Assembly (NCBI GenBank): GCA_008632985.1
Contig: QPGO01000257.1
Location: forward strand, 1-64,000
Reading direction: 5' to 3'
From: Psammoneis japonica
Taxonomy: Eukaryota
DNA length: 64,000 nt
Position 1 is the stretch's first letter. Each line of letters begins with the position of its first letter. The notes under the pieces are model-generated. The model did not search any database. It was not told the DNA's origin and saw only the letters and a program-made list of their open reading frames with translations. The position numbers were made by a program, and so were the translations under genes. Below, in pieces: positions 1 through 52,204 of the stretch.

Positions 1-3000
1 CAACGCAAACGTCAGTCCGGTGGTCATCTCTCTGTTCGCCGGGGGTGACTTGTGCAAGAAACCGCGATGTTGCAGCCATGTGTCCTCTCAGTCAACCAGA
101 TGTCAACCAAAGGCATGCCAACAACGAAAAGATCTACAACCCAGATTGCAACCCGCTGGCGCCAGTCTCCGACAAGAACCGTGTGGGGACTTTGCAGAGT
201 GCGCATGGGCTTTCCAGCAAATCATTCACATTGTGCCGCACACAGTGACGCCCTGTGTGGTCACACACAAAACTGCAAAATTTGGAAAGGTGCTTCCGGC
301 ACATGAGCTCCGCCGTGATTGCAGCGAACCAAGTTCGAGCAATGCCGGTGCATCCTTTGTCACCGAGGAACACGCGCTCGGGCTGTTTGCATTGCTCACA
401 CACACCAAGATGGAGGGCAACAATGCGGACACAAGGGTGCAATTGATGAATGTGAAAGACAACTGGAGCAGTCGGCAGAAGGGACTTTTCCTGACATGCA
501 CACTTCATGTGCTTTTGGATCAACAATGCAATTCTTTGAGGAAGATGGCAAATTTTGAATCCTTGCACAAAAGATTGCGAAACATCTTGTGCCAAACTTT
601 TGTCATTCAAAACGCAAATTTTGCCCCTTTCATGCACTGCAAGAACAAGACGACACGCAACAAATCTGTTCTTGTGTTGGAGTGCAAGCTGATGTCACAA
701 GCAATTGCAGCCATTCGGAACTCCTTCCTCAATGGACAGCACCGCGTGTTGGGCGTTGACCTGGCACTGATGCAGATGTTTCCCCCAAGGCAATTCAGTG
801 AGTTGTTGGGGAAAAAATTGAATTGTGAAGAACAAGCACTCATGGACAGGATGTCAAAGAGAGCACCATTGGCGATGTTGTCTCCGTGCGTTGAAGAAAA
901 CTCCGAACCATGCATCAAGCATGAATTGTTTGGGGAAAGAAGTTTGTTCCTTTGCAAAAGACACAGCGAGGTCATCCAAGCCGACACCACATCGGGTTCA
1001 AGGCGAAGCTTCAAGGACGTTTCAGTCAGTTTGCTCGACGACGCGCAACTGAACACGCACAAATGGATGTTGGGTGAGCTGCGATGCAGGAAGGTGGTCG
1101 CAGACGAGGAGGCGATGCAACCGAAGGAGAAAGGCAGTGACGGCGTCAAGCACATCGAAGCGCACGAAAAACTTGGGAAAATGGTGCTCAAGCATCTGTT
1201 CACCTCCGATTGCGAATCTGCAAAGGCCGTGGTTCAAAAGGCAAGGGAGGACACCAACAGGAACCTCGGGCTGGGTGGTGATGTCGACAAAGCAGGAAAG
1301 TTCGCCGATGCAATGACCCAAACCTTGTGTGAAAGGAAATGTCCCGGGTTGCACAACAGCACAAAGCCGACGAGAGAAAGGGCCGGCATTGCCGGACTGA
1401 TGATGTTGTTCACGAATTTTGTTTTTGACAGCCAGTCCACTGAGATGTTGAAACAAGTCATTAGAAGATCCCACCAATCTGAACCCACCCCACTGGAGGG
1501 ATTGCGATTTTCGTTTGCGACGGAATTTGGAGAAGGAGAAGATGGAAAAGTCCTTCGCGACTGCACAGTGCTGAACAATTTGGCTGAAAACGTGCAGGGA
1601 GAGGTGATGGGCCTGTCAACGGAGTTCCTGAAGGCGGAAACCGCTGACAATGATGGACACACGGCAAGACAATTCCTTGCTTTGGGATCCCACCATGGTT
1701 TCATTCTCGAGAAACGGTGCTTGACATTTGCTCAATCACTCCTTTCCCGCAACATTGCAGGGAACAAAAAGGGGCAAATTGTGTTCGGTGAGTGTCAGAG
1801 CAACGGAAACACATGACAAGTGAAAACCGCGAATTGTTTGGTCGTGTGCCTGATGACTAAATTTTTTTTCTTTTCTTTTTGAAGGGAATTTTTGCAAATC
1901 TCAACGAAACCAATGTTTCCAAGAGCGGTTTGCCCAAAGCCGCACTGTGTGTCTTTGATGTTTGCATCAAAACACAGGTCATCCTTGGTTTGACGATGAC
2001 AAAAATGGTGCAGTGCGGAAAAGGGAGGTGGACCGACAAAAACCTGCGTCCAAAGATGCTGGCCGGTGCCGGAAAGGCAACAATGGAGGCATTTTGTCAC
2101 TTCGGAGATGTGATCCCCGTCAACAAATGTTGGTTGGATGCTGGTGTAGAAAATCACAAAACGTTTCTTTTCGAGGCAATGCTTCCCGAAGAAATGTCTG
2201 GTCTCGACGATGACGAACAGGAGGCATTGAGCGAGGAGCCCTTTCATGAATTGATGTTTCGCGATGACACAAACTGTCCAGAGAAAGTCACAAACATGCC
2301 GCAGATGGTTGCGTTCATTTGCGAATGGTTGACAAAGAAGAAGAGCCTCAAACTGCTCTCTCTGATCGAACACCTGGAAGAGCCAGGGAACATTGTGGCC
2401 AACGAGGCAAACCAGAAAACAGTCTCCACCAAGACTTTGTTCCCAAATTTGAAATCGATCCAGTCGAGAAGGGCAGCGGTGAGTGTGACCGAGAAATCGA
2501 CACCACGTCGTCTCTGTGTCGCACGGTCTGTCCTCGTCGGCTTCGATTCTGCGGAATCGACACGCCATTGCACCGATTTGGTGTTGTCTGTCTGTGCATC
2601 GGATTGTTTGCAGGATCGGACACCAATGTGTCTGTTTTGCGGTCCCCGTCTAACCTGTTTGGTGATTGTTTCCACGCAGGAAATGAAAAGCATGCCAAGT
2701 TAACCTTGAAGGAATTGACTGAGGAGATTTGCATGGCAGGCATGAGCGATGTGTACGATGTGGCAGTTTCAGACGGAGTCGAGCTCAACCACCAAAGGCT
2801 GAAGAAATGGTTGGAAGAACCAAACAAGAGACTCATTGAGGTGGTGGGGAAATCAAAACAGAGCAAGAAAAGGAAACGGGATGATGAGGACGAGCCCAAC
2901 GAAGAAACTGCTGCAAAACCTGCCGAGAAAAGAAAACGCAAGAGAATGAAGTGGAACAAGAATTCCGAGATGCACAAGTCCGTCAGTGGTGCATTGGACA

Positions 3001-4819
3001 ACACCCTGGATGCAGACAACAGCCGACAGGAGGCTTTCGTGAAGTTGCAACAAGAGCACGTTAGGACCTGTCAAACACAGGCGGCTTTTGGAACAGCCCA
3101 TCTGCTGCCTGCAAAGCAACTCTAATCTGACAGTGAAGGATGTGAAGGAACAGATTCACTTCAGAGGATTGAACAGCGAAGACGAGGAGGACACTTTTGC
3201 ACCTGAAGAGCAGGAATCGGAGCAGACATTCAGAGTCACCTGCAAAAACTACGAAGACGCGATGAACCAAATGCGTGGCACATCTCCAAGGGTTGTCAAC
3301 TGCCGGAATTTCCAAGCTCTTTTTGATGAAGACACAGAGACAAAGAAACGATTTGAACATGAGTGCGACTTGATTCACAAGAACTTCAGCAAGGCAATGC
3401 CATGGGCACGCAACAACACAATGCGCAATGGATTCAAGAAGGAAAGACTGGAGAACGAGGACAAAATGAGAAAGACGATTTTGGAAGACAGAATGAAGGA
3501 AGAGAGCGAGAAAAGGAAGGCGAAAAAGAAAAAAAGCAGGCAAAGAAGGACGAAGCGGCGCGAGCAGAGGTCACAGCGGAGGGACAACAAGGGGGAGACG
3601 ACGACGAAGGGATGATGGACACCACCTTGGCAGACCTGCGGCACCAAGATGGGAGCACACAACAAGTGGGTGACGATGCAGCCGGCAAGCCCACAGTGGA
3701 ACATGACAAGGAAGCGGATGAGGAAGAGGAGAAGGAGGAGGAGGCACCAGAGCAGAAGGATGAGGAGGAATCAAGCGACAACAACGACAATGATGATGAT
3801 GACAAAGATGGAGATCACACCCCAGACAAAGACGGAGATGGCACAAACCCTCAAGATGAAGAAGAAAGGAAAGATCGTTCAGATGAGGGGGGCGATGGAG
3901 GCACCGGCCAGTCGCCAGATGACAAAGCGACTTCTGACAGAGACGGAATGTCAGAGGAGAACGACCATCAACAGGGGGGCAAGGAAATGACAAAGCAGAT
4001 GAAGAGGAACCGTCTGCTGCAAACCCTGAGCAACAGGTGGAAGAGGACGAACAAAACATGGATTTTGCTGGGAGTGACGCAGATTCGAAAGACGAACCCC
4101 TTGCAAGAGGGAGTGACAGTGACAGCAGTTGCTCCCTCCTGAATCGAATCAACCAAGTGCCGCGTTCTGCTGCAAGGAAAAGACAGCGGAGAATGGATCT
4201 GGTCTCCTCATCCTCTGAATCATCCTCTGAATCGGAGATTGACGAAGCAGATGATGACGACCCTTCAAGTGCTGTGGCTGCTGCCAAAGTTTCAGCCAAG
4301 ATGAAAACCCCGTCAAAAGTGTCTGAACCACCAAACAAGCATGGGAGCAAAAGAGTTTTTCGGAGAACTCCGGATCGTGAGACAAAAACAGACGCAAAGA
4401 AACGCAGGGCGAAGGCGCTGGCCGAAATGGAGGAAAGAAAGGAACAGGCAAGGAGGAAGAGAATTGAGGCAGACAAGAAAAGGGGGGGGAAGGCGGCTGC
4501 AAGAGCAACGGCAATGGAGGCAAAGAGAAAGTAAATGGAAAAAATGAAGAACGCCAGCAAGCCAAAGAAGGACACGCCGCCGACAGGAAGAATGACGGCA
4601 GAACAACCCCCACCCATCCAAACGAATTCGTCAAAGAAAAAAAAACGTGCAACTGCCCGCGGAACAAAAAACAACCAAAATGAAGTTCAGGCAGTTGGGC
4701 ACATGCATCGACCACAAAAATGTGTGCGGGGAGCATCGCAGTCTCAAAATTGCTGCATTGCTGTGAATCCCGCAACATTCATTGTCCACTTTTTGTTTTT
4801 AGGTTTGTGGCGATTTTAG
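1..4819 (+). pseudogene. Core gene, copy 1 (5'-partial, frameshifted); intron about 1788-1884
   Basis: Same protein as copy 2; GTGAGT donor, GACTAA branch-like site, pyrimidine tract and AG. Confidence 0.6.
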
Positions 4820-4881
4820 CATTCAGTTGCTTGTTTCAGGTGTTGCTTGTGGTCATGCTGTCAGTCACAACATGTGAAAAC

Positions 4882-5093
4882 GATGCTTGACTGATTCGAT
4901 GTGTGCAATGACTTGTCCTGAGTTCGACTGTGGATGAGAAATGGACACGGGTGCGCATCGATTTGGCATGGTCTGTCCTTCAACCGTGGCCACTTGGCAT
5001 CGATCAGGTGGGGTCTGTCATTCAACCGGAAGCGTTTCCCACCACCTCATAACCCAAACCCAAACCCTCCCATCCCAAATGCACCATGTGTAA
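4882..5093 (+). repeat. ~210-bp terminal module E (other copies: 14404-14609, 14687-14764 partial, 17838-18043, 18121-18332, 30072-30283, 38901-39049 partial, 51886-52204 with internal duplication)
   Basis: Contains a hairpin, two GGTCTGTC(C/A)TTCAACCG repeats, an (AAACCC)n tract and the fixed end. Confidence 0.85.
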
Positions 5094-8000
5094 TTTCACA
5101 GATTGCTTTTACAAAGTCAAGCTTTTCCTCGACATGCCAATGCAAAACTGCAGCGGGAGACTTCTTCCATCCGTTGTCACTGGTCTCTTTGTCGCCGAAA
5201 CACGTCTGCATCAAATCAGCTGTAAAAACAAAAAATCAAAAAAGACACTTAACGGTGAAAAACAACGCTTGTCAAAATGGGACCAGCTGTGGCTCCATTT
5301 GGCCACAGAGGCAAGTCATTGGCAAACGCATGTTTTACCTTCATGGGTGATGGGCTCCCTTCCTGACTTTGTGTGTGTTGACTGCGGGTTGAGATGAATG
5401 AATTCGTTAGCCTCGCCGACGGTGGTGGGGAACTGCAACAGAGACACGTGTCGAGTTGGCAATTTGAGTGTGACCGATCCCCTCTTCGCTGGCCTTTTGA
5501 CTGTTCTACAATGCCACTCCTTGTCGCACATTGAAACAACGATGGAGCAGAGCATTTGGATCATGTCTCGAGTTCGTTCATCGCTCATTTCACTCAGTTC
5601 ATCATTGTCGGGTGTGTCGAAAACAGACACAGAGAAGTTGTTGTCTGTTTCTTTTCCTTCACTGCAACAATGCAAAACACGCTTGATTCGAGCCAGGTTC
5701 TCTACACATTGTAGAGGACAAGTCATCTCACCCAAAAATGAGGCAGCTTTGATTCTCGAGTGCGGCTGGGAAGAGGTGGAGATCAAGCTCCTGCTCGATG
5801 TGGGGGCATTGGTGCTTTTCAAAGGCAACAGTGATGGGCGAACTCCATGGCCCAGCCCGGTCCACTGTTTCACTTGATCATTGATCTGCACACGCGACGC
5901 AACCGGGACATCGTAACATCCAACACCCCTTGTGCCCATGGCTGTGTCGAGGATGCGTGGTTTGAAAAATCGTGGGTTTGTCAGCATGACGGCATGCTCC
6001 GCTTTGGCACAACAAGCAGCTCTGACACTCGGTGACAACTGAGTTGCGTCGAGACGTTCGTTTTGCGGGTTGTTCTTTTGAAGGTCAACAAGCTTTTTCA
6101 AAGCTGGAAAACACCGATCCTTCGACTCCCTGCAGCAACGCAACAGATCTTGTTTCTCCACATGTCTCATGCAAGTCATTAGAAAGGGGGGATTGCACAC
6201 AGGCCACTGAGGTCTGGTTGCTGGTCGGCTCAGTTGTCTGCCTTGCTTGATGAAAGATTGTTCAATCATGAGTTCCATCAGGGGCCCAGTCACGTGAAAA
6301 CACCCTTCAAATCTTGCGGTGTTTCTGTCAAAGGCTTCAAGCTGTTCAATGATGCAACTGACGTGACCCTCCATTTCTTTTGTCAGCTGTGACAATTTGG
6401 CAGTGGCTTCTTGCAAACGATGGTCTCCACCCTTGCCCAGCAGAAGGTTTTCGACAACAGTGGGCAAACTGTTGATTTGTGATGCCCAATTCTGTCGCAC
6501 ATCTGACCTTGCACAGTGCCGGGGTCATCGGCATGTAATGCTGAGCACCGGCCAAGAGGAATTCCTCACGTGGGTTTTTTACAGTGACGATGAGACCCGT
6601 TTCCACAGATCATTTGACGCGAACAAGCACATGCCCGGTGGACACATTTCCAACGAGGTTGCGTGTGGCCATTTGTTGGAACTTGGTTCCAGACTTCCCT
6701 GTGCGTTCGGCATCTTCAATGATTGAAAGTCCATCCATGGGAGGAGGATGGCACGCCTCGTCATCTTCCGCCACACTGATGTCAGCGTTTTTGGGTTCGA
6801 CATCAAGAATCCCATCCAACTGCATCTGGTTGAGGAAGGCTGTTCGACGCTGAGCCAACGTTTGTGCACTCGGCCTTTGATTTCTGCATTCTGGAAGAAA
6901 AAATGGATGCAAACACATGGCTGGTTAAACAAACGAGTGCCATGTGGGACTGTTGACAGTCCCATTTGGGAAATGGTTATGAGCACAAACAATGGGCAAC
7001 AAATGCAGCAGGTTGTCACTGGTTGTGAGCACTGTCGATTTGGGACCAGAGTTGGTCCCATTTGGGAATGCTTGGACCGGTTGGGAAAAGGACATCACTC
7101 ACCACTCATTTTGCAATTCATCAAACTGTCAACACATCTGGTTGCACTGTCCATGTCGAGCACCAAAGATCCATCATCGGATGGAGCCATGTCCAGCCCA
7201 AAGTCAACGAACAGACATGTGTCATCGGCGAGAGGGAGCTGCTCCATGTCGACAATTTCTCCCAAACCACCTGACAAATCTGTCAAGTGATTTTTGCACT
7301 TCTGGACAAAAAGCGTTTCAGTTTCGTGCGCATCATTGTCGATCTTAAAGTTGGATCTGTGTTCACCCGCATGAGTGTCGCTGTCATTGCCGCCCTTGCC
7401 ATTTTCGTCGCGGTCATCCTCGCTGTCATTGCCGCCTTTGCCATTTTCGTCGATGTCATCATCGCTGTCATTGCCGCCCTTGCCATTGTTGTCGCTGTCT
7501 TCATCGGATTGATCGTTGTCAGGCACTCGTTGGTTTGATTCCGGCGACCACACCTTCTTGAAACTTGTCAACTGTGAGTGCATTGTCCTGACAATGTCAA
7601 AACACACATTGATCACCGCAATCATCTCATTGGCAAAGCATGCGTCATCTGGGATGCAGCTGCAACCGACAAAGTGAAAGCAAACAAACATCTCAACACC
7701 AGCCTTGCATGTTTTGATGGTTGCAATTTGAAGGCTTGGCATCCTTTCAAGAAGAACCTGATTGGGTGCCACACCGCGAACCCGAACGGGAAGATCAAAT
7801 TCATCTCCACAAATGGCAAAACGAGTCGATTTGGAATTGTGCACACGATCCGTAATTGAGTTGAAGTGGATTTCTGCTTTGCCATTGACGGCAAGCAGTC
7901 CCACCATTTCGGAGAGGTCCGGTGAAATCGAGCAAAAGGAGTTGGCACCAAAGTGTAAATCAACATCCATGCCCGGTTTGAGAACAGCCAAATCCAAGTC

Positions 8001-8144
8001 ATCGGTGACAGTTTGGAAATCTTCAGCTTCCACCTCCAATGGTGGCTGAATTTCCTGCAGATCATCTCCATCAGTTTCAAGGTTTCTAACGATGGTGAGG
8101 ACGTTTTGGCAAATTGCAAGTTTCCTTGCTGAGGTGCGCTCCAT
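5094..8144 (-). pseudogene. Left-hand gene paralog L1, unknown large protein ('GNxSTGH / GxQxY / RFE' family), 3'-truncated by the element terminus
   Basis: ORFs 7095-8276, 6610-6918, 6346-6606 and 5316-6500 align at the protein level with L2 (RFAICGDEFDLPVRVRG vs RFAVCGEPGDLPVRVRG). An intron at about 5338-5220 is followed by CFGDKETSDNGWKKSP. Confidence 0.65.
7377..7500 (-). repeat. 39-bp coding minisatellite in L1 (NGKGGNDS x3)
   Basis: Direct reading. Confidence 0.85.
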
Positions 8145-8148
8145 AAAA

Positions 8149-11100
8149 ATCCATTTGTCGAATGGGAAGGTCCGGTTTCTGGTTGGCCAAGTTGACATTA
8201 AAAAAAAAAAGCAGTCAGCAGGGGGCGTGAAATCGATGCGATCCCGCATCGATGTGGTCTTGGGCGAAATTTTCATTGCATCGAATCGGAGAGGATGTCA
8301 GTCACACAGCAAAGGAAACCAGTGCGTTGCTCAACGGAAAAGTGATGATGCACGCATTCATCAATTGACGAGTCAAATCACAGTTCACACGGGTTGCGTC
8401 CATCACGCGGGAAAAAGGCAACAAACACGAACAAAACAACGAAAATGAAACACAAAAAAGAAGACACAACACCATGAATGTGCCGAGCTCGTCACTCACA
8501 GCACAAGACGATCCCGGCGGTGACCATCATTGTGCGCCAACAGGCACAACTGTGAAAACTTGCTGCAGGGGGGAGGACGGTGCCGATTGGGTGTTTGTGG
8601 ATGCCTTGCCTCATGAGTTTAAAGAAAACAAGGAAAAAGGGGGCACTCACAACGAAATCTGCGACTGGTGGAAGGAGGACGATCACCATGGCATTCGTTT
8701 GCGGTTAAACAAGAAATGGGTGGCCAAGGGCAAAATGCCAAACTGAAATGGTGAGCATGCGTTGATTCCCGGTTCCTGGTTCCATTGTTGAAGTTTGTGA
8801 CCATGCGTCACTGCATCCGGCATTGTAAAAGCGTCTGTCCGACGTTGCGTGTTACACGAGATGGAGACAATGCCGTCTCCATTTCACACGGTCTGTCCGT
8901 CACCAAGTTTGTTTGGAAAAATTGACACGTGCCCGCACCGACCATGCACCGGCGTGAGGATGTCTGTCTGACACAGCGTGTTGTGCAAAATGGAGACGAC
9001 GCCATCTCCATTTCTCACCAGGGCGACAAGAGTTGCCAAACAACATTTTGACCTTTTTTCCCTTGTGCAACCAACAGCAAACAGGCGTTGAGATTCCACG
9101 CAGCCGTCAGCAAGGACGACAGGGAAATGATGAAAGACCTGATCGGCGAAGAATGTGCAATTGGAAATTTGGTGGGAACCTTGATGTTGCAAGAGATGGG
9201 CAGTCCTGGGTGTGTGGCAGCAGCCCACAACAAAATCACACCGATTGATGAAGAATTGACAGTGGAGCAGGTGCACACCATTTTCAGGGTCATTTGTGGC
9301 AAAGTGATCGTGAAGGACGCAACAGTGCCAAAGAATCCGATGGGGGATGTGAGATCAGATGATGAGTGCTTCAAGAAATTGGAGCCACCGTCATGTCCCC
9401 TGTCGAAAGGTGTCCCCTACAAACTGAAGGAATTCACCAACGAAGATTGGGAAAAACTGATGAACAAATGAAAGAACAACAGAGAAAAGGGGGCAGACAT
9501 GGGAGATTGCTTCGACAGGGTCAACGCAAACGTCAGTCCGGTGGTCATCTCTCTGTTCGCGGGGGTGACTTGTGCAAGAAACCGCGATGTTGCAGCCATG
9601 TGTCCTCTCAGTCAACCAGATGTCAACCAAAGGCATGCCAACAACGAAAAGATCTACAACCCAGATTGCAACCCGCTGGCGCCAGTCTCCGACAAGAACC
9701 GTGTGGGGACTTTGCAGAGTGCGCATGGGCTTTCCAGCAAATCATTCAACATTGTGCCGCACACAGTGACGCCCTGCGTGGTCACACACAAAACTGCAAA
9801 ATTTGGAAAGGTGCTTCCGGCACATGAGCTCCACCGTGATTGCAGCGAACCAAGTTCGAGCAATGCCGGCGCATCCTTTGTCACCGAGGAACACGCGCTC
9901 GGGCTGTTTGCATTGCTCACACACGCCAAGATGGAGGGCGACAATGCGGACACAAGGGTGCAATTGATGAATGTGAAAGACAACTGGAGCAGTCGGCAGA
10001 AGGGACTTTTCCTGACATGCACACTTCATGTGCTTTTGGATCAACAATGCAACTCTTTGAGGAAGATGGCAAATTTTGAATCCTTGCACAAAAGATTGCG
10101 AAACATCTTGTGCCAAACTTTTGTCATTCAAAATGCAAATTTTGCCCCTTTCATGCACTGCAAGAACAAGACGACACGCAACAAATCTATTCTTGTGTTG
10201 GAGTGCAAGCTGATGTCACAAGCAATTGCAGCCATTCGGAACTCCTTCCTCGATGGACAGCACCGCGTGTTGGGCGTTGACCTGGCACTGATGCAGATGT
10301 TTCCCCCAAGGCAATTCAGTGAGTTGTTGGGGAAAAAATTGAATTGTGAAGAACAAGCACTCATGGACAGGATGTCGAAGAGAGCGCCATTGGCAATGTT
10401 GTCTCCGTGCGTTGAAGAAAACTCCGAACCGCACATCAAGCATGAATTGTTTGGGGAAAGAAGTTTGTTCCTTTGCAAAAGACACAGCGAGGTCATCCAA
10501 GCCGACACCACATCGGGTTCAAGGCGAAGCTTTAAGGACGTTTCAGTCAGTTTGCTCGACGACGCGCAACTGAACACGCACAAATGGATGTTGGGTGAGC
10601 TGCGATGCAGGAAGGTGGTCGCAGACGAGGAGGCGATGCAACCAAAGGAGAAAGGCAGTGACGGCGTCAAGCACATCGAAGCGCACGAAAAACTCAGGAA
10701 AATGGTGCTCAAGCATCTGTTCACTTCCGATTGCGAATCTGCAAAGGCCGTGGTTCAAAAGGCAAGGGAGGACACCAACAGGAACCTCGGGCTGGGTGGT
10801 GATGTCGACGAAGCAGGAAAGTTCGCCGATGCAATGACCCAAACCTTGCGTGAAAGGAAATGTCCCGGGTTGCAAACAGCACAAAGCCGACGAGAGAAAG
10901 GGCCGGCATTGCCGGACTGATGATGTTGTTCACGAATTTTGTTTTTGACAGCCAGTCCGCTGAAATGTTGAAACAAGTCATTGGAAGATCCCACCAATCT
11001 GAACCCACCCTGCCGGAGGGATTGCGATTTTCGTTTGCGACGGAATTTGGAGAAGGAGAAGATGGAAAAGTCCTTCGCGACTGCACAGTGCTGAACAATT

Positions 11101-38838: not shown

Positions 38839-39049
38839 CATTCAGTCACTTGTTTCAGGTGTTGCTTGCAGTCACGCTGTCAGTCACAACATGTGAAAAC
38901 GATGCTTGACTGATTCGATGTGTGCAATGACTTGTCCTGAGTTCGACTGTGGATGAGAAATGGATGCGGGTGCGCATCAATTTGGCATGGTCTGTCCTTC
39001 AACCGTGGCCACTTGGCATCGATCAGGTGGGGTCTGTCATTCAACCGGA

Positions 39050-42120: not shown

Positions 42121-42743
42121 GAAGCTCCAAAGGCGGTCTTTAAATCAAGAACAATCTCACCACATGTTGCAGGGGGGCACTGAAGGGACACAGCCCACTG
42201 GCAGGGCACTGATCAAACAAGATTTGCGGTGCAAGTGTTTGGCGCTGGGGGCACCTTTGAGATTTTGTGCCCTCAGTCATGTTGCGCAATTCTTGACACA
42301 GTGCCCTTGACCTTTTTGTGCCCTTGGCTGTTTTGTGCCCTTTCCTTTTTTTGTGCCCTTGAGCATTTTGCCCCATCTTGCGGTTTTGTGCCCTTGGCCA
42401 TTTTGTGCCCTTTGTGGCTTTGTGCCCTTGGCCATTTTGTGCCTTTTTTGGTTTTGGGCCCTCAGCCACATTTGGTGCCCCTCATGATTTTGTGCCTTCA
42501 GCAATTTTTGGCCATTGTGGTTTTGTGCCCTTTGCCACCTTGGGCCCTTTCTGATTTTTTGCCCTTGGCAGCTTTGTGCCCTCAGCCACCATTTTGCACC
42601 CTCAGTCATTTTGTGACCTCAGCAATTTTGCACCCCTGCCTGGTTTGTGCTCTTTGTGATTTGGTGCCCTCGACAGACATTTTTTGTCCTTTTTGATTTT
42701 GTGCCCTTGGCCATTTTGCTGGTCACGACAGAGCTGCAGAACA

Positions 42744-43133
42744 GACGTGTTCCAGCCCCAGGTGGGACTCCGTGTGACATTGGGCCCGCAGAATTCTGCG
42801 TGCGAGCTCCGCAGTGCAAGAATTTAATCAATGGACACATTTGTCTTCAACAGCAAACAAACGGCCAAGTTTGTGGCACAATTGTGCCTCTTGCCACTCG
42901 ATGTTTTTGCAAATGCGACTGCCCTGCACGATTCTCAAGACAGCACAGAATCGCGCTGTGACAAAAAATGTCAAAAGTTGTTGGACGGATCGCTCAATGA
43001 GTGCACCGTAAAATGACACAAAATGTCAAAAAAATCATGTAGAAATCTACGTGCGCGACATGCGACGTGATTCAAAAAACTGTCGATGTCACAGTTCAGC
43101 AGTGCAAGGTCCCACCTAGACCTGGAACGCGTC
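42744..43133. mobile_element. MITE copy C
   Basis: TIRs; TSD AACA; empty site at about 40155. Confidence 0.92.
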
Positions 43134-43911
43134 AACAACAAGAACCTGCCCGACGAAGAGCGCAGGGCAAAGGAGAGAAAGTGCGTGAGATGCCTGAAGC
43201 ACTTCATGGCAGGGAACTCCAAGAATGGAGATGCGGGAGGGAGTGCACCCAGGAAATGCAAGAGGGAGGATTTTTGCAGGAAGATTGTGGCAGAGCGTGA
43301 CAGGAAAGTGTCGGAGGGGGGCAATGGGTCGGGGGATGAGGAAAGCCGCATGGGGGGTTGGACCCAGACACATGAGCTGGAGCCAACACCTGTTTGGCAG
43401 ACAATGTGTGAAAAGTGGCAGTCACGTTTGTTGCAAATGACGTTGCAGACACAATCTCAATTGAGTGACTGCATCAGAGTGCATGACATTGTGACATCTG
43501 CGCACACAACAAAAATGTGTTGCCACATCATAAAATCCACTTGTCTGCACATGACGGTTTTTGTTGCTCAGCTGGTTGTCAATCTCCTGCTGTTCTTCAT
43601 GTTTGAACACAGATGTTTTTTAATTTTTGTGCTCTGCCTTTTTCACAACAACTGACGATTTTTGGCGACAAGCCAAACATTGCAGTCACATGCAATGAAA
43701 TTTTCATCATGCAAAGTGCACACCAATCATTCATTCAACAACTGTGCTCCAATTTGCCCAGTCGTCCGCATCGTCCTCTTCATTCCACATGTCTTCTCCG
43801 CTCTCTTGCAAGAATTTCAAATGTGCCGCTGCCGCGTTGGATGTTTCCTCATCACCGTTCCAAAAAAGCCACACTGCATTTCTTGCATTTGGGTGAACAT
43901 CATCGAGAGGA

Positions 43912-44301
43912 GACGCGTTCCAGCCGCAGGTGGGACTCCGTGTGACATTGGGCCCGTAGAATTCTACGTGCAAGCTCCGCAGTACGAGAATTCAATCAAT
44001 GGACATGTTTGTCTTCAACATCAAATAAATGGCCAAGTTTGTGGTGCAATTATGCCTCTCACCACTCGACTTTTTTGCAAGTGCGCCTGCCCCACGCGGT
44101 TCTTAAGACATCACAGAATCGCGCTGCAACAAAAAATGTCAAAAGTTGTTGGACGGATCGCTCAACAAGTGCACCGTAAAATGACACAAAACATCGAAAA
44201 AATCACGTAGAAATCTACGTGCACGACATACGACGTGATTCAAAAAACTGTCGATGTCACAGTTCAGCAGTGCGAGGTCCCACCTGGACCTGGAACACGT
44301 C
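43912..44301. mobile_element. MITE copy D
   Basis: TIRs; TSD AGGA. Confidence 0.92.
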
Positions 44302-44913
44302 AGGAAGAGGTCCCTTGAAACGCTGAATCGCATTGCTGCTCCCCTCTTGATGTCGTGTCGTTGGCTTCTTTTTCTCTTTTTTCATTTTGCCCATCCCATT
44401 TTTCTCTTCCTTCCTTGTCTTGGTGCCGCCTGTTTTCACCGTCTCCGGTGTCTTTCCATCCGAGTCCTTCTTTTTCATCAATCCTGTTGCCGTCGCCTTC
44501 ATCTCTTGTTGTTGTTTTTTTTTCTGTTGGGTGTCACTTTGTTTTGGATCCATGTTTCTGACTTCTCATTTCCGAGTGTTTCTTTGTGATTGTTCGCATG
44601 CGTCACTTGAAGGCACCCACGTGTTTTTCACGTGCCTTGATGCGCGTGCAGAAATCCATGTTGTTTTCCAGTGCATGCACCCTTTCTCCTGATGCTGTTC
44701 CGCACAACATTTTCTTCCATCAATTCTGCACTCCGTGCTGCCCTTTCCTGGCACAATCTCATGTGGGATTTCCCTGGGAGAAGTTGCGCGCGCGTCTGGC
44801 AGGTTTTTGTGTTTAAAACTCCAAATCACACCAGGCGCGCATGTGACTTCTCCCACACACCACTCTGGCACATTTCTGCAGAAACCAGATTTTTTGGTGT
44901 TGGAACAGCAACC

Positions 44914-47900
44914 ATGGCGCCGCATGACCTGTCAGTCGCCTCTCTGTTGCAAGACAACAATGATTCCTGCCTCAAGGAGGCCGCATTTGAATCTCTCTTT
45001 ACCAACAGTTTTGGAGTGATCGACAGCAATGAGCAGAGCCATGTCAAAGCAACAATCGAGACGGTGAAATCCAAGGTTCAGTTTCACCACGATTCCACTC
45101 ATGATCCCTCTCCGAATTGGATCGCACTTGCCCATGTGTGGCAAAAGTCAAAGGGCAGACCTCATTTTTTTGTGGAGCCAATGGCTGTGAACCACATTGT
45201 TGCAAAGGAACTTGGGTGCAAGAGCTTGCTGCACTTTCTTTCCACAAAAGGATGGAGTCATTCCAGTCAAGGCGGCAAACATCCTCATGCGTTGGAGTGT
45301 CGCCGTGCTCCCAAAGCAGAGGACATGAAAGTCATCGGCGACAAGGCAAAATCAACAGACATTGCAGCCAACATGATGGCAAAGATTTCCATGTTGTGCA
45401 AGCTTCTCCATGATCCCGGATTGTGTGACCCAAAGGGAGAGCCACTTGACAAGCACATCAAGCTGAGAAGTTTTGAAGGGAAGGTTTTGCGCCATGCACA
45501 GCACCTTCACATTGGTTTTTTGATTCTTCGTGACAAGATTCCACCGTGCGCACCTGAAAGGAATGGTGATTGCGGTTGTTGGCTGCACTCCCTGTTCGGC
45601 GAATGTGACGAGACATCGGCCCACATCAACTTTTTGGAGAATTTCCTGGCTCTTGGTCACTGTGAGACGACCAAAGACGAATGCCCCATGTCCTTCCCTG
45701 AACTCGTAAAGTCATTGTTCCGCCAACACAAAATTTCTTGGGAAAAGCCTGTGCAACTGGCGATGCTCAATGTTGAGCGAGAAAAAATGTGTGCAACACA
45801 TGTCGATGAGACTCTTTTAAGATGTGTGAAAATTGATCGTGTGGTTTCTGTCACTGACGATTCCGGCAAAAGCAAGGCTGCAAGGGATCGTTTTGAGGCC
45901 ATGTGGAAAGCCAGGCTTCATGACTTTGCCGCTCAGTGCAAGAAGAAAGAAATCGGCAATGCAGTTCCATCTGTTGCAAAAAATGCTCGGAAACAAAAAA
46001 ATCCAAATGGCATGAATCCATCATGTTGTTTGATTGATTGTTTGTGCTCCTCTTCTTGTCTCCAATTCTTCTGTTCTTCTTGCCACCTCTTTGGTCACCT
46101 CCCTTTGCTCCTCAAGCCCCAGTCTCAAAAACCCCAAAGATGGTGAACCTTCTGATGTTTCTCAGAATGAATCGCTGATTCCCCAAGATGTGCCGACTCT
46201 CGAGGAACAATTTGAACATTCCCGAACAAAGTGGCCGACCCTCGGCACGACTTGTCAGTCGCCTCCTCCTCCGCCAAACAATTTCACAAAAGAATGAATT
46301 GTGAAAGTGTTTCCTGAACCATCTCCGTTTGTGATTCCGGGTGAGGTGAAGTCACAACATTCTCACCTTGTCGTCTTTGAGGAAACCCCCATTTCCGGTT
46401 CCTTCAAGGGGAGCTGTGTCAAGCACCAGTTGTTCCACAGCATCTCCAACTTCCACTTGGTGAATCACCTCCGCAAGTTCATGCATGGATTTGAAAACGG
46501 CATGGCTCCCAATGATCCGACGCAAGAATCGATGGTTGCGATTGCTTGCCCGACCCAGTCAACCTTTCATTTTTCCAACGTGGTCACTCATTTGCGATGC
46601 ACGGACAAGATGTTTCTGAAATGCTTTTTTGGATTGCAACCCAGTGTGTCGTTGACACTCCATGCAGTGTTGGAACATGGCGAGCCAAACAAAAAAAGGG
46701 ATGGACCAGAATGCAAGTTGCGCTGTCGGATCTGTTTTGGTTGTTGTGGCTGGAATTGCGCAGATGGTGAGTCAGCTGAAGTGGGACCTGCTCACAAGCC
46801 TGGTGCTGTCTTTGGCAGGGACAAGTGGGAGAAGCTTCCAAAGGATGTGCAGGCAATGACAGCCTCAATCTTGGACGCCGCGCAACTCTGCGAGGATGAA
46901 ATTGATCTTGTTGCTTTGAAAGAAATGCGTTCCTTCCATGACCCGTGCCGTGATGGTCTTTTTGTGGCTGAGCTCCACAAGATGGTTGGAGCCAAGCATG
47001 TTAGAAAGGAAGGTGTGGAAATTCAAGTGAAGCGCATCTCGTCATCCGGCAAAAATCTGTCAATTCGAAAACCGAGCTGCACATTGACAAAGAAGATTGT
47101 GGCATGGATGGGCACACCAAGACTGGTGCTCTTTGCTCGTCACTGCGAGACACTGTTGGTCGCTCTTGGTCATTGAAGGTTGTCACTGCATCCAAAGGCA
47201 ATGCTGGAAACTGCGTCAGTTCAGCACATGAGCATGCCGAGTTCCGATCGTGTGTGCATGGTCATTTCGCAAAACTTGATCTGTCACATGCTGCAGAAAT
47301 GACAAGACACCGTGGCCCTTGTCATCTTCCTTTGGGCAAGCCAACCCACAGAAACATCAAAGATTTTTTCCTTGACCCTCACTCTGTGTGGGTGGAAGAG
47401 GAAATTGGCAAGCCAAATCTTCCGTCCGACACAGTTGAGCATCCCGTCATTGTCATGCCGCGGAAACGTCTTCCGTTTGCCATCGTGAAGGACTTCAATT
47501 TCTCTTGCGGTTGTTCGGCAATCATTGACAACCTCGACGAGGTTGGTGCACACGACTGCTTTTGTTGCGCCATTGTGGCTGGGCATCAAACCGGATTCTC
47601 CCATTTTTGCCACTTGTTGTGCAACACAGATGCTGCGAAGCGTCCTTTCGTGGCTGGTGATCATGTCCTTCATTGCTTCAGAGAAGCTGCAAGGCCATTC
47701 AGCAGCATTGCGGGGGACTCGATTTCGAGGAGGTTCATGTGGCAGAGTGCGGGATGAAACTCAACGGTTTGATGGACTTGCTTGTTGGCAGACTGTTTGT
47801 CATCATCGACTGGATCAATGACAATGTTGGCAATCCAACGTTTGACCACAAGGCGATCGAGGATGTGTTCAAAACCGTGGTCCAAACATGGGATCATGCA

Positions 47901-48269
47901 GGTGCTGATTGTGGAGAGTTCAGATGCATGAACTCCATGCAGATGTTGATGCTGTGTGGCACGGGGATCCATCCTCACCCTGGCCTTCGTAATCTTGTCC
48001 ACCCGGCAGCCAAGTTGGGAGCAGCGAAGCAAATGGAGGAAATGAAGGTCCCGGCAGAGGGTGATTTTGATTTGGAAGACTGTGGAAAGAATGGCCCAGA
48101 GTCTTTGCTGTGTGACCTGAGTGCAGCTCGTGAAAAGATGGGAATCTGCAATGTCTTTTGTTGTGGACAGCATCTGTTGCTCTTGTTCTCTGATGGGCAA
48201 TCAATGATCAAGCGGTTTGGAAGGCATGGGTGGGAGCCAGCCCCGCTCGTGTCGATTGATGAAGTTTGA
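44914..48269 (+). pseudogene. Unknown gene P1 (degraded, several ORF pieces)
   Basis: ORFs 44671, 46301, 47104 and 47673; homologous to P2 (GHTKTGALC vs GHTKTRALC; HPHPGLRNLVHPAAKLGAAKQ vs HPHPDLRNLVCPVSKLGAAKQ). Confidence 0.55.
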
Positions 48270-48399
48270 GCCGAACTGGAACGGCAAAGAGAGGTTGCTT
48301 TTTCATGGCAATCACATTTGTTTTTTGTCTGATCACGCTGACATCATCACATTGAATTCTCGTTCTAACAGGAAGAAGGCCGCTGGTGATTTGTTGTCA

Positions 48400-49385
48400 T
48401 TCGCAATGAACAAAAGTGACGATTGTGAGGAGGAGTCAATTGACAAGAAAACAAGCAAACTTCCAACTGCTTGCATGGGTGAAGAGGACAAAAGCAAAGA
48501 GCCCATTGACAATGAGCACAACCAAGTTTCACATTGCTCCGAGGGTGAAGAGGACCACAGCGACTTGGGAGATTGTTTCGCAAGTGACAAAACCAATGGG
48601 GAAACACACAATGTGCTGTGGTTGGGGATGACCCGTCCGCTCAATGCAAGGCATCTATCTTCTCAAGAATTGTGCTCTGAGAAGGGGGTGGCCTCAGTGT
48701 CGTCCGACCAACACAGGCGAGACGAGGCCCGCGCAATGGCATTTGAGGAAACTGACAAAACAACCACAAACGTCGTTCTGACAGTTTCTCTCCAAGATGG
48801 CCATCCTGATCTGCACTTAAATTGCAATGTGAAAGCAAGAGATTTCATCAAGAGAGTCAAGCAGCAGTTTGAGAAACTTGTTGATTTCGAAAATCATGGG
48901 TTCGACCAAATCATGTTGGACCACTGCTGGATGCCAGATGGAGAGTGGCACGACAGTCGTTTTGGGACGACTCAATTTTTCCAGAATCTAATTGATCTTC
49001 GGGCCTTGCTCTCCAAAAATGAAGAAGGGGGGACACAGTGATTCCCTTCACTCTTGCAACCTTCTTCCAGGTTGTCAAACAATGAAAGAAATTGTCGGCT
49101 GTGTTCGACATGTGCACAATGGACAATGATGCTGCAAAGAGCTGTGCGAGCACATTCTTTGCAAGCAACCTTGTGACCCAAGAACAACAAGAACGGTGGT
49201 TGGGAAAGCCCTCCAATCAGGAAGAAGCTCATCTTGGAGTTTCCGAAGAAGTCATCAGAACAAAAGCAACAGAAGGTGCTCGCACTGCACTGCTTCACGT
49301 GTGCCTCAATGACTTTGCCAATTCTGAAAGGATCAAATTCATCATGTTTGCAAGAAAGAGTTGGGAAATCACTGTGAGTGAATGA
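48400..49385 (+). pseudogene. Unknown gene or exon Q1
   Basis: HLNC...FDQIMLDHCWMP...SRF; homologous to Q2. Boundaries approximate. Confidence 0.5.
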
Positions 49386-49688: not shown

Positions 49689-52204
49689 GGAGCAAGAATT
49701 CCGAGATGTGCAAGCCCGTCAGTGGCGCATTGGACAACACCCTGGACGCAGACGACAGCCGACAGGAGGCTTTCGTGAAGTTGCAACAAGAGCACGTTGG
49801 GACCTGTCAAACACAGGTGGCTCTTGGAACAGCCATCTGCCACCTGCAAAGCAACTCAAATCTGACAGTGAAGGATGTGAAGGAACAGATTCACTTCGGA
49901 GGATTGAACAGCGAAGACAAGGAGGACACTTTTGCACCTGAAGAGCAGGAGTCGGAGCAGACATTTGAAGTCACCCATGAAACCTGCAAAGACGCGATGA
50001 ACCGAAGGCGTGGCACATCTCCAAGGGTTGTCAACTGCCGGAATTTCCAAGCTCTTTTTGATGAAGACACAGAGACAAAGAAACGATTTGAGCACGAGTG
50101 CGACTTGATTCACAAGAACTTCAGCAAGGCAATGCCATGGGCGTGCAACAACACAGCGCGCAATGGATTCAAGAAGGAAAGACTGGAGAACGAGGACAAA
50201 ATGAGAAAGACGATTTTGGAAGACAGAATTGAGGAAGAGAGCAAGAAAAGGAAGGCGAAAAAGAAAAAAAAGCAGGCAAAGAAGGACGAAGCGGCGCGAG
50301 CAGAGGTCACAGCGGAGGGACAACAAGGGGGAGACGACGACGAAGGGATGATGGACACCACCTTGGCAGACCTGCGGCACCAAGATGGGAGCACACAACA
50401 AGTGGGCGACGATGCAGCCGGCAAGCCCACAGTGGAACATGACAAGGAAGCGGGTGAGGAAGAGGAGAAGGAGGAGGAGGCACCAGAGCAGAAGGATGAG
50501 GAGGAATCAAGCGACAACAACGACAATGATGATGATGACAAAGATGGAGATCACACCCCAGACAAAGACGGAGATGGCACAAACCCTCAAGATGAAGAAG
50601 AAAGGAAAGATCGTTCAGATGAGGGGGGCAATGGAGGCACCGGCCAGTCGCCAGATGACAAAACACAACAAGTGGGCGAGGATGCAGCCGGCAACCCCAC
50701 TGTGGAACATGACAAGGAAACAGATGAGGAAGAGGAGAAGGAGGAGGAGGAATCAGAGAAGGATGAGGGTGAAACACGCGACAACAACGACAATGATGAC
50801 GATGACAAAGATGGAGATCACACCCCTGACAAAGACGGAGATGGCACACCCCCTCAAGATGGAGAGCAAAAGAAAGACAGTTCAGATGAGGGGGGCGATG
50901 GGGGCACTGGCCAGTCGCCAGATGACAAAGCGACTTCTGACAGAGACGGAATGTCAGAGGAGAATGACCATCAACAGGGGGGGCAAGGAAATGACAAAGC
51001 AGATGAAGAGGAACCATCTGCTGCAAACCCTGAGCAACAGGTGAAAGAGGATGAACAAAACATGGGTGTGGCTGGGAGTGATGCAGATTTGAACAACGAA
51101 CCCCTTGCAAGCGGCAGTGACAGCAACAGCAGTTGCTCCCTCCTGAATCGAATCAACCAAGTGCCACGTTCCGCTGCAAGGAAAAGACAGCTGAGAAGGG
51201 ATTTGGTCTCCTCATCCTCTGAATCATCCTCTGAATCGGAGATTGATGCATCAGATGATGACAACCCTTCAAGTGCTGCAGCTGCTGCCAAAGTTTCAGC
51301 CAAGATGAAAACCCCGTCAAAGGTGTCTGAACCACCAAACAAGAATGTGAGGAAAAGAGTTGTTTGAGCAACTCCGGATCGTGAGACAAAAACGGACGCA
51401 AAGAAATGCAGGGCGATGGCGCTGGCCGAAATGGAGGAAAGAAAGGAACAGGCAAGGAGGAAGAGAATTGAGGCAGACAAGAAAAGGGGGGGGGAGGCGG
51501 CAGCAAGAGCGAAGGCAATGGAGGCAAAGAGAAAGGAAATGGAAAAAATGAAGAACGCCAGCAAGCCAAAGAAGGACACGCCGCCGACAGGAAGAATGAC
51601 AGCAGAACAACCCCCACCCATCCAAACAAATTCGTCAAAGAAAAAAAGACGTGCAACCACCCGCGGAACAAAAAACAACAAAAATGAAGTTTGGGCAGTT
51701 GGGCACATGCATCGACCACAAAAATGTGTGCGGGGAGCATCGCAGTCTCAAAATGGCTGCATTGCTGTGAATCCCACAACATTCATTGTCCACTTTTTGT
51801 TTTTAGGTTTGTGGTGATTTTAGCATTCAGTCACTTGTTTTGGGTGTTGCTTGCAGTCACGCTGTCAGTCACAACATGTGAAAACGATGCTTGACTGATT
51901 GGATGTGTGCAATGACTTGTCCTGAGTTCGACTGTGGATGAGAAATAGATGCGGGTGCGCACCCATTTGGCATGGTCTCTCCATTGACAGGAGCAAATTT
52001 GTGTCAATCGCTTTGGCAAATGCATGTCATAAGGTCGGCTGTTGATGAGAAATGGACACGGGTGCGCATCCATTTGGCATGGTCTGTCCTTCAACCGTGG
52101 CCACTTGGCATCGATCAGGTGGGGTCTGTCATTCAACCGGAAGCGTTTCGTGCCACCTCATGACCCAAACCCAAACCCTCCCATCCCAAATACACTATGT
52201 GCAA
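49689..52204 (+). mobile_element. Large repeated element, copy 5 (left-truncated, ~2.5 kb)
   Basis: Homology starts at ggagcaagaattccgag. It ends cccaaatacactatgtgcaa, the least mutated version of the terminus. Confidence 0.8.
50393..50930 (+). repeat. 270-bp tandem duplication of the acidic segment, specific to copy 5
   Basis: acacaacaagtgggcga at 50393 and 50663. Confidence 0.9.

Follow-up and report, generated by a model that had tools for sequence, protein, structure and literature searches.

The 64-kb stretch of DNA analysed here (the window) is built around a 20-base motif, the fixed terminus, which stops at the same final base at six + strand sites, five of them independent, and is preceded by repeat copies of widely differing length. 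We tentatively read the window as a series of stacked copies, dead and non-autonomous, of a large multi-gene mobile element that was copied from one fixed end. Mobility is deduced from structure; no enzyme, second end or empty site was seen.

A terminus reused to the same base

A degenerate query, CCCAAAYRCACYRYRYRYRA, in which every presumed TA was replaced by YR, matched six times on the + strand and not at all on the - strand of the 64 kb, against 0.12 matches expected by chance. The matches end at 5093 (5074-5093 in copy A), 14609, 18043, 18332, 30283 and 52204. The common end base reported in the earlier note was thereby confirmed, as was its remark that 18043 duplicates 14609: positions 17468-18198 are 100% identical over 731 bases to 14034-14764 and the 18043 match falls inside this repeat, which leaves five independent junctions. 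The terminus reads ...TG[T/C]AA, presumably from an ancestral ...TATAA, and is followed by TTT, TT, TT and TTT at four of the five independent ends and by CG at the fifth (14609/18043). Read on the other strand, the element would start with TT after AA. The fixed end lies 3′ of the + strand genes, 376 b beyond the stop of the second + strand frame of the repeat body, E.

An imperfect 12-base palindrome, GGAAGCGTTTCC, has its end 54 b from the terminus in all six cases and has no further copy on either strand of the window, which holds no 5′ end; the left end is missing from every copy. A 5-base stem within the last 14 bases depends on mutated bases, and no significant 3′ hairpin was found when the last 150 b of three copies (one on both strands) were folded as DNA (z -0.74 to +1.38). 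Six G-triplets form a run on the - strand, ~20-50 b inside the terminus. All ends lie in a single orientation, as had been claimed, and the window contains neither an inverted copy of the terminus nor a long terminal repeat; no A run or simple-repeat tail occurs at any of the six termini and no telomere-type repeats at the junctions.

Extents and order of the copies

Homology leftward from the termini runs for 215 b (18118-18332), 576 b (17468-18043), 2.5 kb (49689-52204), 6.5 kb (8154-14609), 7.7 kb (22627-30283) and, for the copy truncated by the start of the window, at least 5.1 kb (1-5093). Left extents had been put at about 0.2 to 12 kb; the range from 215 b to at least 7.7 kb stands, and the 12-kb value is valid only if the whole interval between two ends (18333-30283) is one unit. 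A seventh copy (34019-39049) stops 63 bases short of the terminus and continues into a 17-base satellite. Along the + strand each unit is ordered X(-), L(-), a shared divergent upstream region, E with its two long + frames, and the terminus, and the truncated units keep to this order: that at 5094 starts in an X remnant, that at 18333 holds all of X and that at 30284 starts in L. The shared L-E region at 8154-9521 carries 32-34-base palindromic motifs at 8858 and 8983, and identity begins ~10 b from the likely L1 start codon (~8144, placed by eye). By pairwise differences between E copies, F stands furthest apart, followed by D and then by C, and in the first block A and B are closest. The coordinates are collected in Table 1.

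Table 1. Repeat copies, genes and junction pieces in the window
Feature	Position	Strand	Remarks
Repeat body E, copy A, ending at fixed terminus	1-5093	+	97% identical to 9522-14602 and 34019-39049; left side cut by window
X-type gene remnant, 5′ region, cut by junction	5094-5318	-	5162-5261 64% identical over 106 b to 21157-21262
L1, decayed L-family gene, 3′ end of coding region complete	5319-8297	-	family HMM E 3.1e-71 and 1.5e-46
Shared region between divergent L and E genes, copy B	8154-9521	.	96.6% identical to 24604-26820
E copy B with terminus	9522-14609	+	two long + strand frames, ~9472-11340 and ~11884-14230
1 filler base and 78-base patch	14610-14688	+	patch identical to internal X piece 15580-15657; duplicated at 18044-18122
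X region, orientation opposite to copy beside L2	14764-17472	+	98.3% reverse-complement match to 18615-21315
E 3′ fragment, 576 b, with terminus	17468-18043	+	within 731-base exact duplicate of 14034-14764
E 3′ fragment, 215 b, with terminus	18118-18332	+	
X region lying downstream of L2, at the left of the longest unit (18333-30283)	18333-21315	-	18615-21315 98.3% reverse-complement match to 14764-17472
L2, decayed full-length L-family gene	21252-24647	-	family HMM E 1.4e-98
Shared upstream region and E copy C with terminus	24648-30283	+	assembly gap 26821-27431
L2D, L2 copy cut mid-frame at junction 30283	30284-32303	-	96.8% match to L2
E copy D, lacking last 63 bases, then 17-base satellite (39073-39650)	34019-39049	+	
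E copy F, 3′ 2.5 kb, with terminus	49689-52204	+	most diverged; internal duplications of 267 and 107 b
Q2, long - strand frames, directly after last terminus	52205-55372	-	related to Q1 (46298-47754 +)

Summed contig depth of a public run, compared over 1-9500 of the window, is a rough guide only to copy number; it ranges from 715 to 2374 over E 1-4438 (~1000 over the body) and reaches 4038 and 3463 in the last two bins. Over the final 650 bases it amounts to 3500-4000, that is 3.5-4x the repeat body, and just past the terminus it falls roughly 50-fold, to ~60-100, with 66-149 over L1 (5390-7291). The joints listed include extra ones absent from the window, which link the terminus to E position 2631 and, weakly, to 5423. 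The depth profile suggests that the family is spread genome-wide, ends sharply and includes many copies truncated on the left, and that the genome holds several times more termini than the six in the window.

Genes carried by the copies

The stop of L1 lies at 5316-5318, its C-terminus aligns with intact relatives and the 5093 junction is 223 b downstream. The claim that the junctions at 5093, 30283 and 52204 cut related - strand genes survives in part: 30283 cuts L2D, whereas 5093 cuts an X remnant and leaves L1 complete, and Q2 shows no detectable similarity to L. Q2 matches neither the L nor the X family HMM and aligns with Q1 at 28% over 217 aa (BLASTP E 4e-18). The segment 21157-21262 is the start of the X gene downstream of L2, and the frame at 14831-16021 matches the X family HMM with E 7.6e-18. 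L2 is followed by a 150-base tandem repeat (21328-21621) and matches L2D at 96.8% (22627-25443 against 30280-33102). The intron-like stretch in L2 is a frameshifted segment: in the sister copy L2D the frame stays open across it, in alignment with the family. L1 retains one Tyr in 802 aa and L2 two in 1132 aa, against 20-41 in relatives.

L is a conserved ~1000-aa protein with a confidently predicted fold. A metagenome scan gave three short loci only; in a contig from another organism, L and X homologues stand side by side with X directly downstream of L (locus L002). L and X are decayed members of two true, unnamed protein families, and their adjacency in another organism is as would be expected of a travelling module. 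L and X would be the element's own genes.

No named relative of L was recovered in Pfam, and comparison of its fold with solved and viral structures gave no match. With the predicted L N-domain fold, no solved chain was convincing (best Z 4.3, rmsd 5.5 Å, 126 aligned residues); in the VIA list for the whole L model, helical-bundle matches at residues 621-789 (best Z 7.3, rmsd 3.2 Å, 103 aligned) were not convincing either. With L2 (811 aa) and E's first + strand frame (604 aa) as queries, word-indexed protein searches returned nothing, and the ESM Atlas gave no usable match for E's frame or for an intact L relative (P0006). PHROGs gave no significant match for 14 proteins, and neither did PDB sequences, queried with the L profile and with X, or IMG/VR viral contigs, queried with the L profile. 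When 227 six-frame ORFs of at least 110 aa were compared with Pfam, only a neighbouring 7tm_3 receptor gene reached the cut-off; no HUH/Rep, Pif1-type helicase, reverse transcriptase, endonuclease or DDE domain was detected among them, in agreement with the earlier reader, who saw no HUH-helicase, RT or DDE protein. When the entire window was scanned against Rfam at E <= 1, no hammerhead ribozyme was found and there were just two weak lncRNA-model matches.

Copies of already erased templates

Many TA steps in the copies have been erased to TG or CA. In E 1-1000, a region with erasure of both directions, copies A-D show 8 TG/CA conflicts against ~43 shared erased sites, and about two thirds of erased sites are common to the L2 and L2D halves. 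Conflicts being few and erased sites mostly shared, the templates were already dead. The copies stem from DNA already stripped of most TA steps and were thus copied passively; their templates being hypermutated, they do not represent insertions of an autonomous element that was still live. In E 2-5 kb, as in E as a whole, erasure is ~87% one-directional, so that sharing cannot be judged over E 2-5 kb. Shared erasure direction across all of E as proof of common ancestry was accordingly narrowed, this ~87% bias being the realistic baseline. A late-erased terminal region, considered as a sign of selection for intact ends, was dropped because the per-segment estimates were too noisy.

Copying from a fixed end and its alternatives

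In the fixed-end reading, a new copy would start at the terminus and extend leftward over a variable distance. It might begin with a nick at a specific site followed by rolling-circle-type strand displacement, or be primed at a transcript's 3′ end, and its far end would be sealed through microhomology or template switching. The product would be a left-truncated unit, sometimes with an inverted upstream piece, abutting the neighbour's terminus, and the copying enzyme, which is not in these copies, would act in trans. All junctions would stem from one end-specific reaction, which we infer to be DNA-based rather than RNA-based. The data show the fixed end with its variable far ends, one orientation, a depth that rises toward the terminus, the junction details given below and templates already hypermutated; the constant X-L-E order, the L-X pair in another organism and the lack of a transposase, reverse transcriptase or Rep domain also favour this reading. 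Several observations speak against it: the donor pieces at the junctions (X, L2, E) all lie within a few kb and this, with the tandem-duplication geometry of the pair 22627-30283 / 30280-39049, would suit copying driven by local repair equally well; precise Rep-mediated strand transfer would not leave microhomology and a filler base; and the sequence has a gap in the assembly (26821-27431) as well as the exact 731-base duplicate, which is suspicious. The earlier note had proposed an element that inserts into its own kind. A one-ended repeat family is real, but self-insertion is only one reading of the stacking, which would look the same if units were added to the end of a DNA molecule or arose by template switches starting from a break at the fixed end.

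We consider it rather unlikely that the copies are RNA-mediated, with a transcript ending at the terminus being reverse transcribed by an enzyme in trans and primed at nicks or at an exposed chromosome end. Such a process would be expected to yield 5′ truncation, 5′ inversions (twin priming) and microhomology, and twin priming with its microhomology link is reported in PMC2837659. The fixed end is where a + strand transcript would stop, depth climbs toward it, and two units consist of an inverted upstream piece and a direct 3′ piece joined through short common bases. The four bases GCAA are common to both sides of junction 30283, where L2D is cut mid-frame, and the order of copy distances (F > D > C, with A-B closest in the first block) fits successive leftward additions. 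However, neither an A run nor a simple repeat marks the terminus, within 60 kb there is no reverse transcriptase and no hammerhead ribozyme was found at E <= 1. Units reach 12 kb, of which ~6.5 kb hold genes running antisense to such a transcript, and with hypermutated templates the dead copies would have needed full-length transcription.

Host repair could instead have built the array if the terminus were a site of recurrent breakage or stalling, from which a free 3′ end re-primed nearby by microhomology and copied back to the same site with repeated template switching; we regard this, too, as rather unlikely. Microhomology and templated and inverted insertions are typical of template-switch repair events. 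The pair 22627-30283 / 30280-39049 has the geometry of a plain tandem duplication with GCAA in common, and junction 14609 carries a 1-base filler and then a 78-base X patch in reversed orientation, templated from a few kb away. The inverted copy from the same neighbourhood, 2.7 kb of reversed X, is joined to the last 576 b of E via a common CAATG, another switch, and dead templates would be no obstacle. Against this, five events fell on the same base, more precise than breakage at a structure-prone tract; depth suggests several-fold more termini genome-wide with a ~50-fold drop past the end; and the L-X module is present in another organism.

A 449-base contig of the public run covers 5069-5517 without differences at a depth of 58.6 and spans the 5093 junction, a support that is not independent if the run came from the same sample as the window's assembly. 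That collapsed or mis-joined repeats produced false junctions is very improbable: the N gap at 26821-27431 and a 731-base pair at 100% beside arms 98.3% alike would fit such an artefact, but this contig spans the 5093 junction exactly (in a run that is possibly the window's own sample) and the junction copies differ mutually at TA-type sites and so are distinct loci.

If the terminus is a site-specific copying start, fixed-end copying would amount to a one-ended replicative element in an alga, and L (with X), for which neither a named relative nor a fold is known, would be its candidate protein family. A bolder version would make X-L-E a eukaryotic mobile element of a new class, replicating from a single defined end, with L as the end-specific copying enzyme, X, always its neighbour, as cofactor and the dead copies as the footprints of the reaction; this seems to us doubtful. 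On a cautious reading, DNA disabled by the genome's TA-erasing mutation process was still multiplied, and that process can be measured on the dated copies at this locus. Should the array instead be the work of host repair at a fragile site, recurrent template switching would have acted here with a precision unusual for a natural example.

Comparison with known systems

Cut-and-paste DNA transposons have terminal inverted repeats and a DDE protein; here no inverted terminus occurs in 64 kb and no DDE domain was found, though the left end is missing from all copies. Non-LTR elements of the LINE type encode an RT/endonuclease ORF and carry a poly(A) or simple-repeat 3′ tail, neither of which was seen (the tail at none of the six ends), but their variable 5′ truncation and 3′-end excess are matched here by extents from 215 b to at least 7.7 kb and a depth of 3.5-4x. 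Target-site duplications are a further mark of LINE-type elements; here each left end adjoins another unit. Penelope-like elements have an RT, with or without GIY-YIG, and a hammerhead ribozyme in their terminal repeat; neither was found here (Pfam; Rfam at E <= 1).

In HeT-A/TART of Drosophila and the Athena/Terminon Penelope-like elements of rotifers, fixed 3′ ends abut truncated 5′ ends without target duplications, and Terminons are giant and multi-gene. The array resembles them in its single orientation and in setting a fixed end against a truncated one, and differs in having no RT, poly(A), telomeric repeats at junctions or hammerhead at E <= 1. Telomeric retroelement arrays stand at chromosome ends, with telomeric repeats present or absent between units. 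Head-to-tail arrays of variably 5′-truncated retroelements at chromosome ends are reported in PMC5537684, PMC6431247 and PMC8557442. Microhomology-mediated template switching of the FoSTeS/MMBIR type shares with the array its microhomology, templated patch, inverted duplication and tandem geometry, whereas here one breakpoint was reused to the base five times and the terminal part is in genome-wide excess.

The telomere-capping Helitrons of Paramecium form orientation-locked stacks of complete and truncated elements, mostly ORF-less and satellite-rich, with an ORF orientation that varies between elements (PMC13085455). They have defined left and right terminal sequences, telomeric repeats at their flanks and a Rep/helicase ORF of 9-10 kb; nothing of the kind was seen here.

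Canonical Helitrons have TC...CTRR ends between A and T, a stable hairpin ~10-20 b before the 3′ end and a Rep (HUH) protein with a Pif1-type helicase; here the end is ...TG[T/C]AA followed by TT at four of five, the hairpin z ranges from -0.74 to +1.38 and neither domain occurs among the 227 ORFs. In Helraiser experiments the left end is reportedly essential and the right end dispensable, whereas here the fixed end is the one 3′ of the + strand genes. The likeness to Helitrons and Helentrons lies in the apparent lack of terminal inverted repeats and target duplication and in a large cargo on both strands. In bat Helitrons, 5′-truncated copies and copies with abutting ends have been described (PMC4778049). 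PMC4067079 places a palindromic sub-terminal repeat of Helentrons 38-60 b ahead of the 3′ end, and a short palindrome closer to it; here the imperfect 12-base palindrome stands at 54 b and the last 14 bases contain the 5-base stem. Helentron/HINE (DINE-1) elements have paired 12-15-base sub-terminal inverted repeats; here GGAAGCGTTTCC stands only near the 3′ end, with no matching 5′ repeat in the window, which contains no 5′ end of the element. PMC4067079 also gives Helentrons a TT preference with a variable T run at their boundaries, and the TT insertion and variable T run of Helentron/HINE elements are paralleled here by TT or TTT at four of the five independent ends.

A repeat body with one fixed end

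The window carries several copies of E, a repeat body of ~5.1 kb that ends at a fixed 3′ terminus. The earlier note had described six ends falling on the same base in one orientation, mostly followed by TT, and both observations held: with each presumed TA of its motif written as YR, the degenerate terminus occurs six times in the window, always on the + strand, where chance predicts 0.12 occurrences. As the 18043 terminus lies within a 731-base exact duplicate of 14034–14764, five junctions are independent, and TT directly follows four of these. The 200 bases upstream of the terminus align base for base and similarity ceases there in every copy; within the last 20 bases the copies differ at all presumed TA sites. 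We found no inverted copy of the terminus in the window and no ribozyme match in an Rfam scan at E ≤ 1; the 150 bases leading up to the terminus fold into no significant hairpin (z −0.74 to +1.38). Sub-terminal motifs, GGTCTGTC[C/A]TTCAACCG (twice) and GGAAGCGTTTCC (ending 54 bases before the terminus), occur only at 3′ ends of E.

Coordinates of repeat copies, gene remnants and other features
Feature	Position	Strand	Remarks
Terminus matches	end at 5093, 14609, 18043, 18332, 30283, 52204	+	degenerate motif search
E copies A, B, C, D	1–5093, 9522–14609, 25967–30283 (N gap inside), 34019–39049	+	96.5–97.4% identity
Partial E copy F	49689–52204	+	92.6–96.8% identity
Short 3′ pieces of E	17468–18043, 18118–18332	+	sequence comparison
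E frames		+	two long, ~620 and ~800 codons; second ends in acidic and basic low-complexity tail
L1	5319–8297	−	decayed L family gene
L2	21252–24647	−	decayed L family gene
L2D	30285–32303	−	cut copy of L2
X region	18333–21315		~3 kb, downstream of L2
Second X copy	14764–17472		opposite orientation; 98.3% to first
Q1	44641–49038	+	long frame
Q2	52205–55898	−	long frame, right of terminus 52204
385-base element	33103–33487, 42743–43134, 43911–44302, 60557–60947		imperfect inverted ends
Class C receptor gene (7tm_3)	within 62–64 kb		E 3.6e-29

The 1.4 kb left of E (8154–9521 and equivalents) is common to three copies, and a palindromic motif of 32–34 bases recurs between E and L, a gene family with decayed members to its left. 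Copy D lacks the last 63 bases of E and continues into a 17-base satellite. Arrays of this unit (TTTGTGCCCTTGGCCAC; periods of 34, 51 and 68 were also seen) occupy 39073–39650 and 42301–42629, the array beginning exactly where copy D loses its end. The 731-base pair (14034–14764 and 17468–18198, 100% identical) flanks a 2.7-kb arm whose identity to its inverted partner is only 98.3%; a 731-base stretch diverging at the arm's rate would carry ~13 differences and none is present, so the pair reflects either conversion or duplication in the very recent past or a fault in the assembly. The 385-base element, with an 8-base target duplication (TAGAGACG / TGGAGACG), interrupts copy D only, within one of the palindromic motifs. 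TA observed/expected in its four copies is 0.19–0.86, far less depleted than the surroundings, indicating that it moved after the duplications.

Genes beside the repeat

Among 227 six-frame ORFs of at least 110 aa, none except the receptor gene reached the Pfam cut-off, in agreement with the earlier statement that no HUH-helicase, RT or DDE protein was seen. A profile of L1, L2 and L2D, searched against 1.84 billion protein representatives, matched 67 proteins at E ≤ 0.001 (nine at E ≤ 1e-30, best 5.9e-87), mostly 900–1200 aa long. L is a real protein family (about 1000 aa; relatives P0001–P0067, metagenome loci L001–L003), and a rare one. No Pfam domain was found in the 22 relatives scanned; the 10 looked up are all unnamed or "hypothetical", and lie on metagenome, Logan, ENA or NCBI contigs 3.5–14 kb long.

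The L1 and L2 proteins are 37–42% identical, whereas the DNA to the right of both is 97% identical, starting ~10 bases from the likely L1 start codon (~8144, placed by eye). The C-terminus of L1 aligns with those of the family, so its frame is complete. What looks like an intron in L2 is instead a frameshift, since L2D reads through this stretch and aligns with the family. At the nine alignment columns where six or more of the 11 intact relatives carry Tyr, L2 has one Tyr, four His, three Cys and one Leu, and L1 five Cys, two His, one Asn and one gap; L2 retains two Tyr in 1132 residues versus 20–41 in relatives. L1 and L2 are both dead copies.

The structure of the intact relative P0006, modeled with 67 aligned sequences, was confidently predicted (mean pLDDT 83.2, pTM 0.79), as was the N-terminal α/β domain from locus L001 folded alone (pLDDT 89.0, pTM 0.87). 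Foldseek gave no PDB or viral match to the L models at E ≤ 0.001. With an exhaustive structural aligner, the best P0006 match (Z 7.3, 3.2 Å rmsd, 103 aligned) is to a predicted helical bundle, residues 621–789, and is within noise for helices; the N-domain reached Z 4.3 at best (5.5 Å rmsd, 126 aligned), and none of the chains reached Z 5. The confident L model therefore has no apparent counterpart among solved or viral structures.

X is a second, likewise unnamed family of ~370 aa. Its frame at 14831–16021 matches, with 23% identity over 280 aa (E 3e-11; family HMM E 7.6e-18), the ORF that immediately follows the L homologue in metagenome locus L002, so that L then X forms a conserved two-gene module. 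Downstream of the X gene, at 16513–16675 (+) and mirrored within 19218–19970 (−), ~55 residues resemble the central part of the L family (positions 507–558 of its HMM, E 0.0014) and are perhaps left over from another copy of L.

That junctions cut related minus-strand genes was only partly upheld. Junction 30283 does cut an L2 copy; the 223 bases from the L1 stop to 5093 include a stretch 64% like the beginning of X, so that junction cuts an X-type remnant and not L1. Q2 shows no detectable relation to L: it matches Q1 (28% identity) and neither L nor X. Q1 and Q2 flank the 2.5-kb E fragment in inverted orientation, and no protein family was found for them in Pfam or PHROGs. The protein searches made, PHROGs included, revealed no relatives of the two E frames.

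TA erasure and the timing of copying

The window, eukaryotic DNA, has a G+C content of ~49%. Up to about position 60000 TA is almost absent (observed/expected 0.00–0.17) while TG and CA are over-represented, and TA is normal (0.57–0.68) only at 62–64 kb, which confirms TA-to-TG/CA erasure from 1 to ~60000. Because TAA and TAG stops are lost in this way, long open frames on either strand are no proof of genes. For this background one precedent is reported, in Bigelowiella natans (2026 preprint, 10.64898/2026.01.13.699255). At single sites (6813–6814, 673–674, 1782–1783, 8684–8685) the window and the contigs of a public run show paired CA↔TG changes, even in apparently single-copy L1 (depth 50 of 50), as expected if one TA had been erased independently on two haplotypes or in two strains.

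Copies that arrived TA-intact and were erased separately should often conflict, with TG in one and CA in another. In E 1–1000, where both erasure directions are used, copies A–D show 8 conflicts against ~43 sites erased alike; the L2 and L2D halves show 16 conflicts, 8 partly retained sites and, according to the baseline chosen, ~87–131 shared sites. In these two regions some two thirds to four fifths of the erasure is older than copying; across all of E erasure is ~87% one-directional and the test is powerless. The copies were thus made from templates with already wrecked genes, which excludes their being insertions of an autonomous element that was still live. Pairwise differences place F farthest from the others, followed by D and next by C; A and B are closest in the first block and not in the second.

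Abundance beyond the window

The public run, possibly the source sample, has Logan contigs over the window DNA, which we compared over 1–9500 at ≥88% likeness. Summed depth was 66–149 over L1 (5390–7291), 201 in the junction-containing bin, 715–2374 over E 1–4438, and 4038 and 3463 in the last two E bins. Summed depth is not copy number, as the tool warns; as a rough guide it suggests ~15–20 equivalents of the E body and 60–70 of the 3′ end, several times the window's content, and that similarity stops at the terminus throughout the genome. The contigs also contain two joints that the window lacks: one contig links the terminus to E position 2631, with 38 bases on its shorter side, and a weaker link (21 bases) runs from 5086 to 5423.

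Junctions and the mode of copying

At 30283 the terminus (...GTGCAA) joins L2 sequence, whose intact counterpart has GCAAC... here; four bases are therefore common to both sides. At 14609 one extra base follows the terminus, then 78 bases identical to X 15580–15657, in the orientation opposite to that of X next to L2, after which E restarts at position 4879 with 2–4 bases common to both sides. The reversed X copy meets E position 4512 through a common CAATG. These joins define two units, each a reversed upstream piece plus a direct 3′ piece.

Three mechanisms fit: one-ended rolling-circle-type DNA copying, 3′-primed RNA copying and host template switching. We tentatively prefer the first, in which the copies would have been mobilised in trans by a DNA-level process. 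Five junctions exact to the base, the genome-wide excess and the sharp stop at the terminus favour an end-specific reaction, and units as long as 12 kb that contain ~6.5 kb of antisense genes, the lack of a tail and the dead templates favour DNA over RNA. RNA-level copying primed at the 3′ end, against which those same three features count, is rather unlikely, although the microhomology, the filler base and two inversion-type units resembling twin priming favour RNA or end-joining over precise strand transfer. Equally doubtful is host repair by template switching from a recurrent break, for which speak the nearby source of every donor piece and the tandem-duplication geometry of 22627–30283 / 30280–39049, whose unit ends at the terminus. 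An assembly artefact is very improbable; a 449-base contig (depth 58.6) spans 5069–5517 without difference.

Comparison with known elements

Telomeric retroelement arrays share the stacking, but their enzymes and tails are absent here. Canonical Helitrons differ in their TC/CTRR ends, their 3′ hairpin (absent from the last 150 bases) and their Rep/helicase (absent among the 227 ORFs). Helentrons are alike in part and weakly, the 5′ end being missing here: TT with a T run stands at the boundary, and the sub-terminal palindrome lies at about the distance given in PMC4067079. Bat Helitrons include 5′-truncated and abutting copies (PMC4778049), and Paramecium chromosome ends carry orientation-locked stacks of mostly ORF-less Helitrons (PMC13085455).
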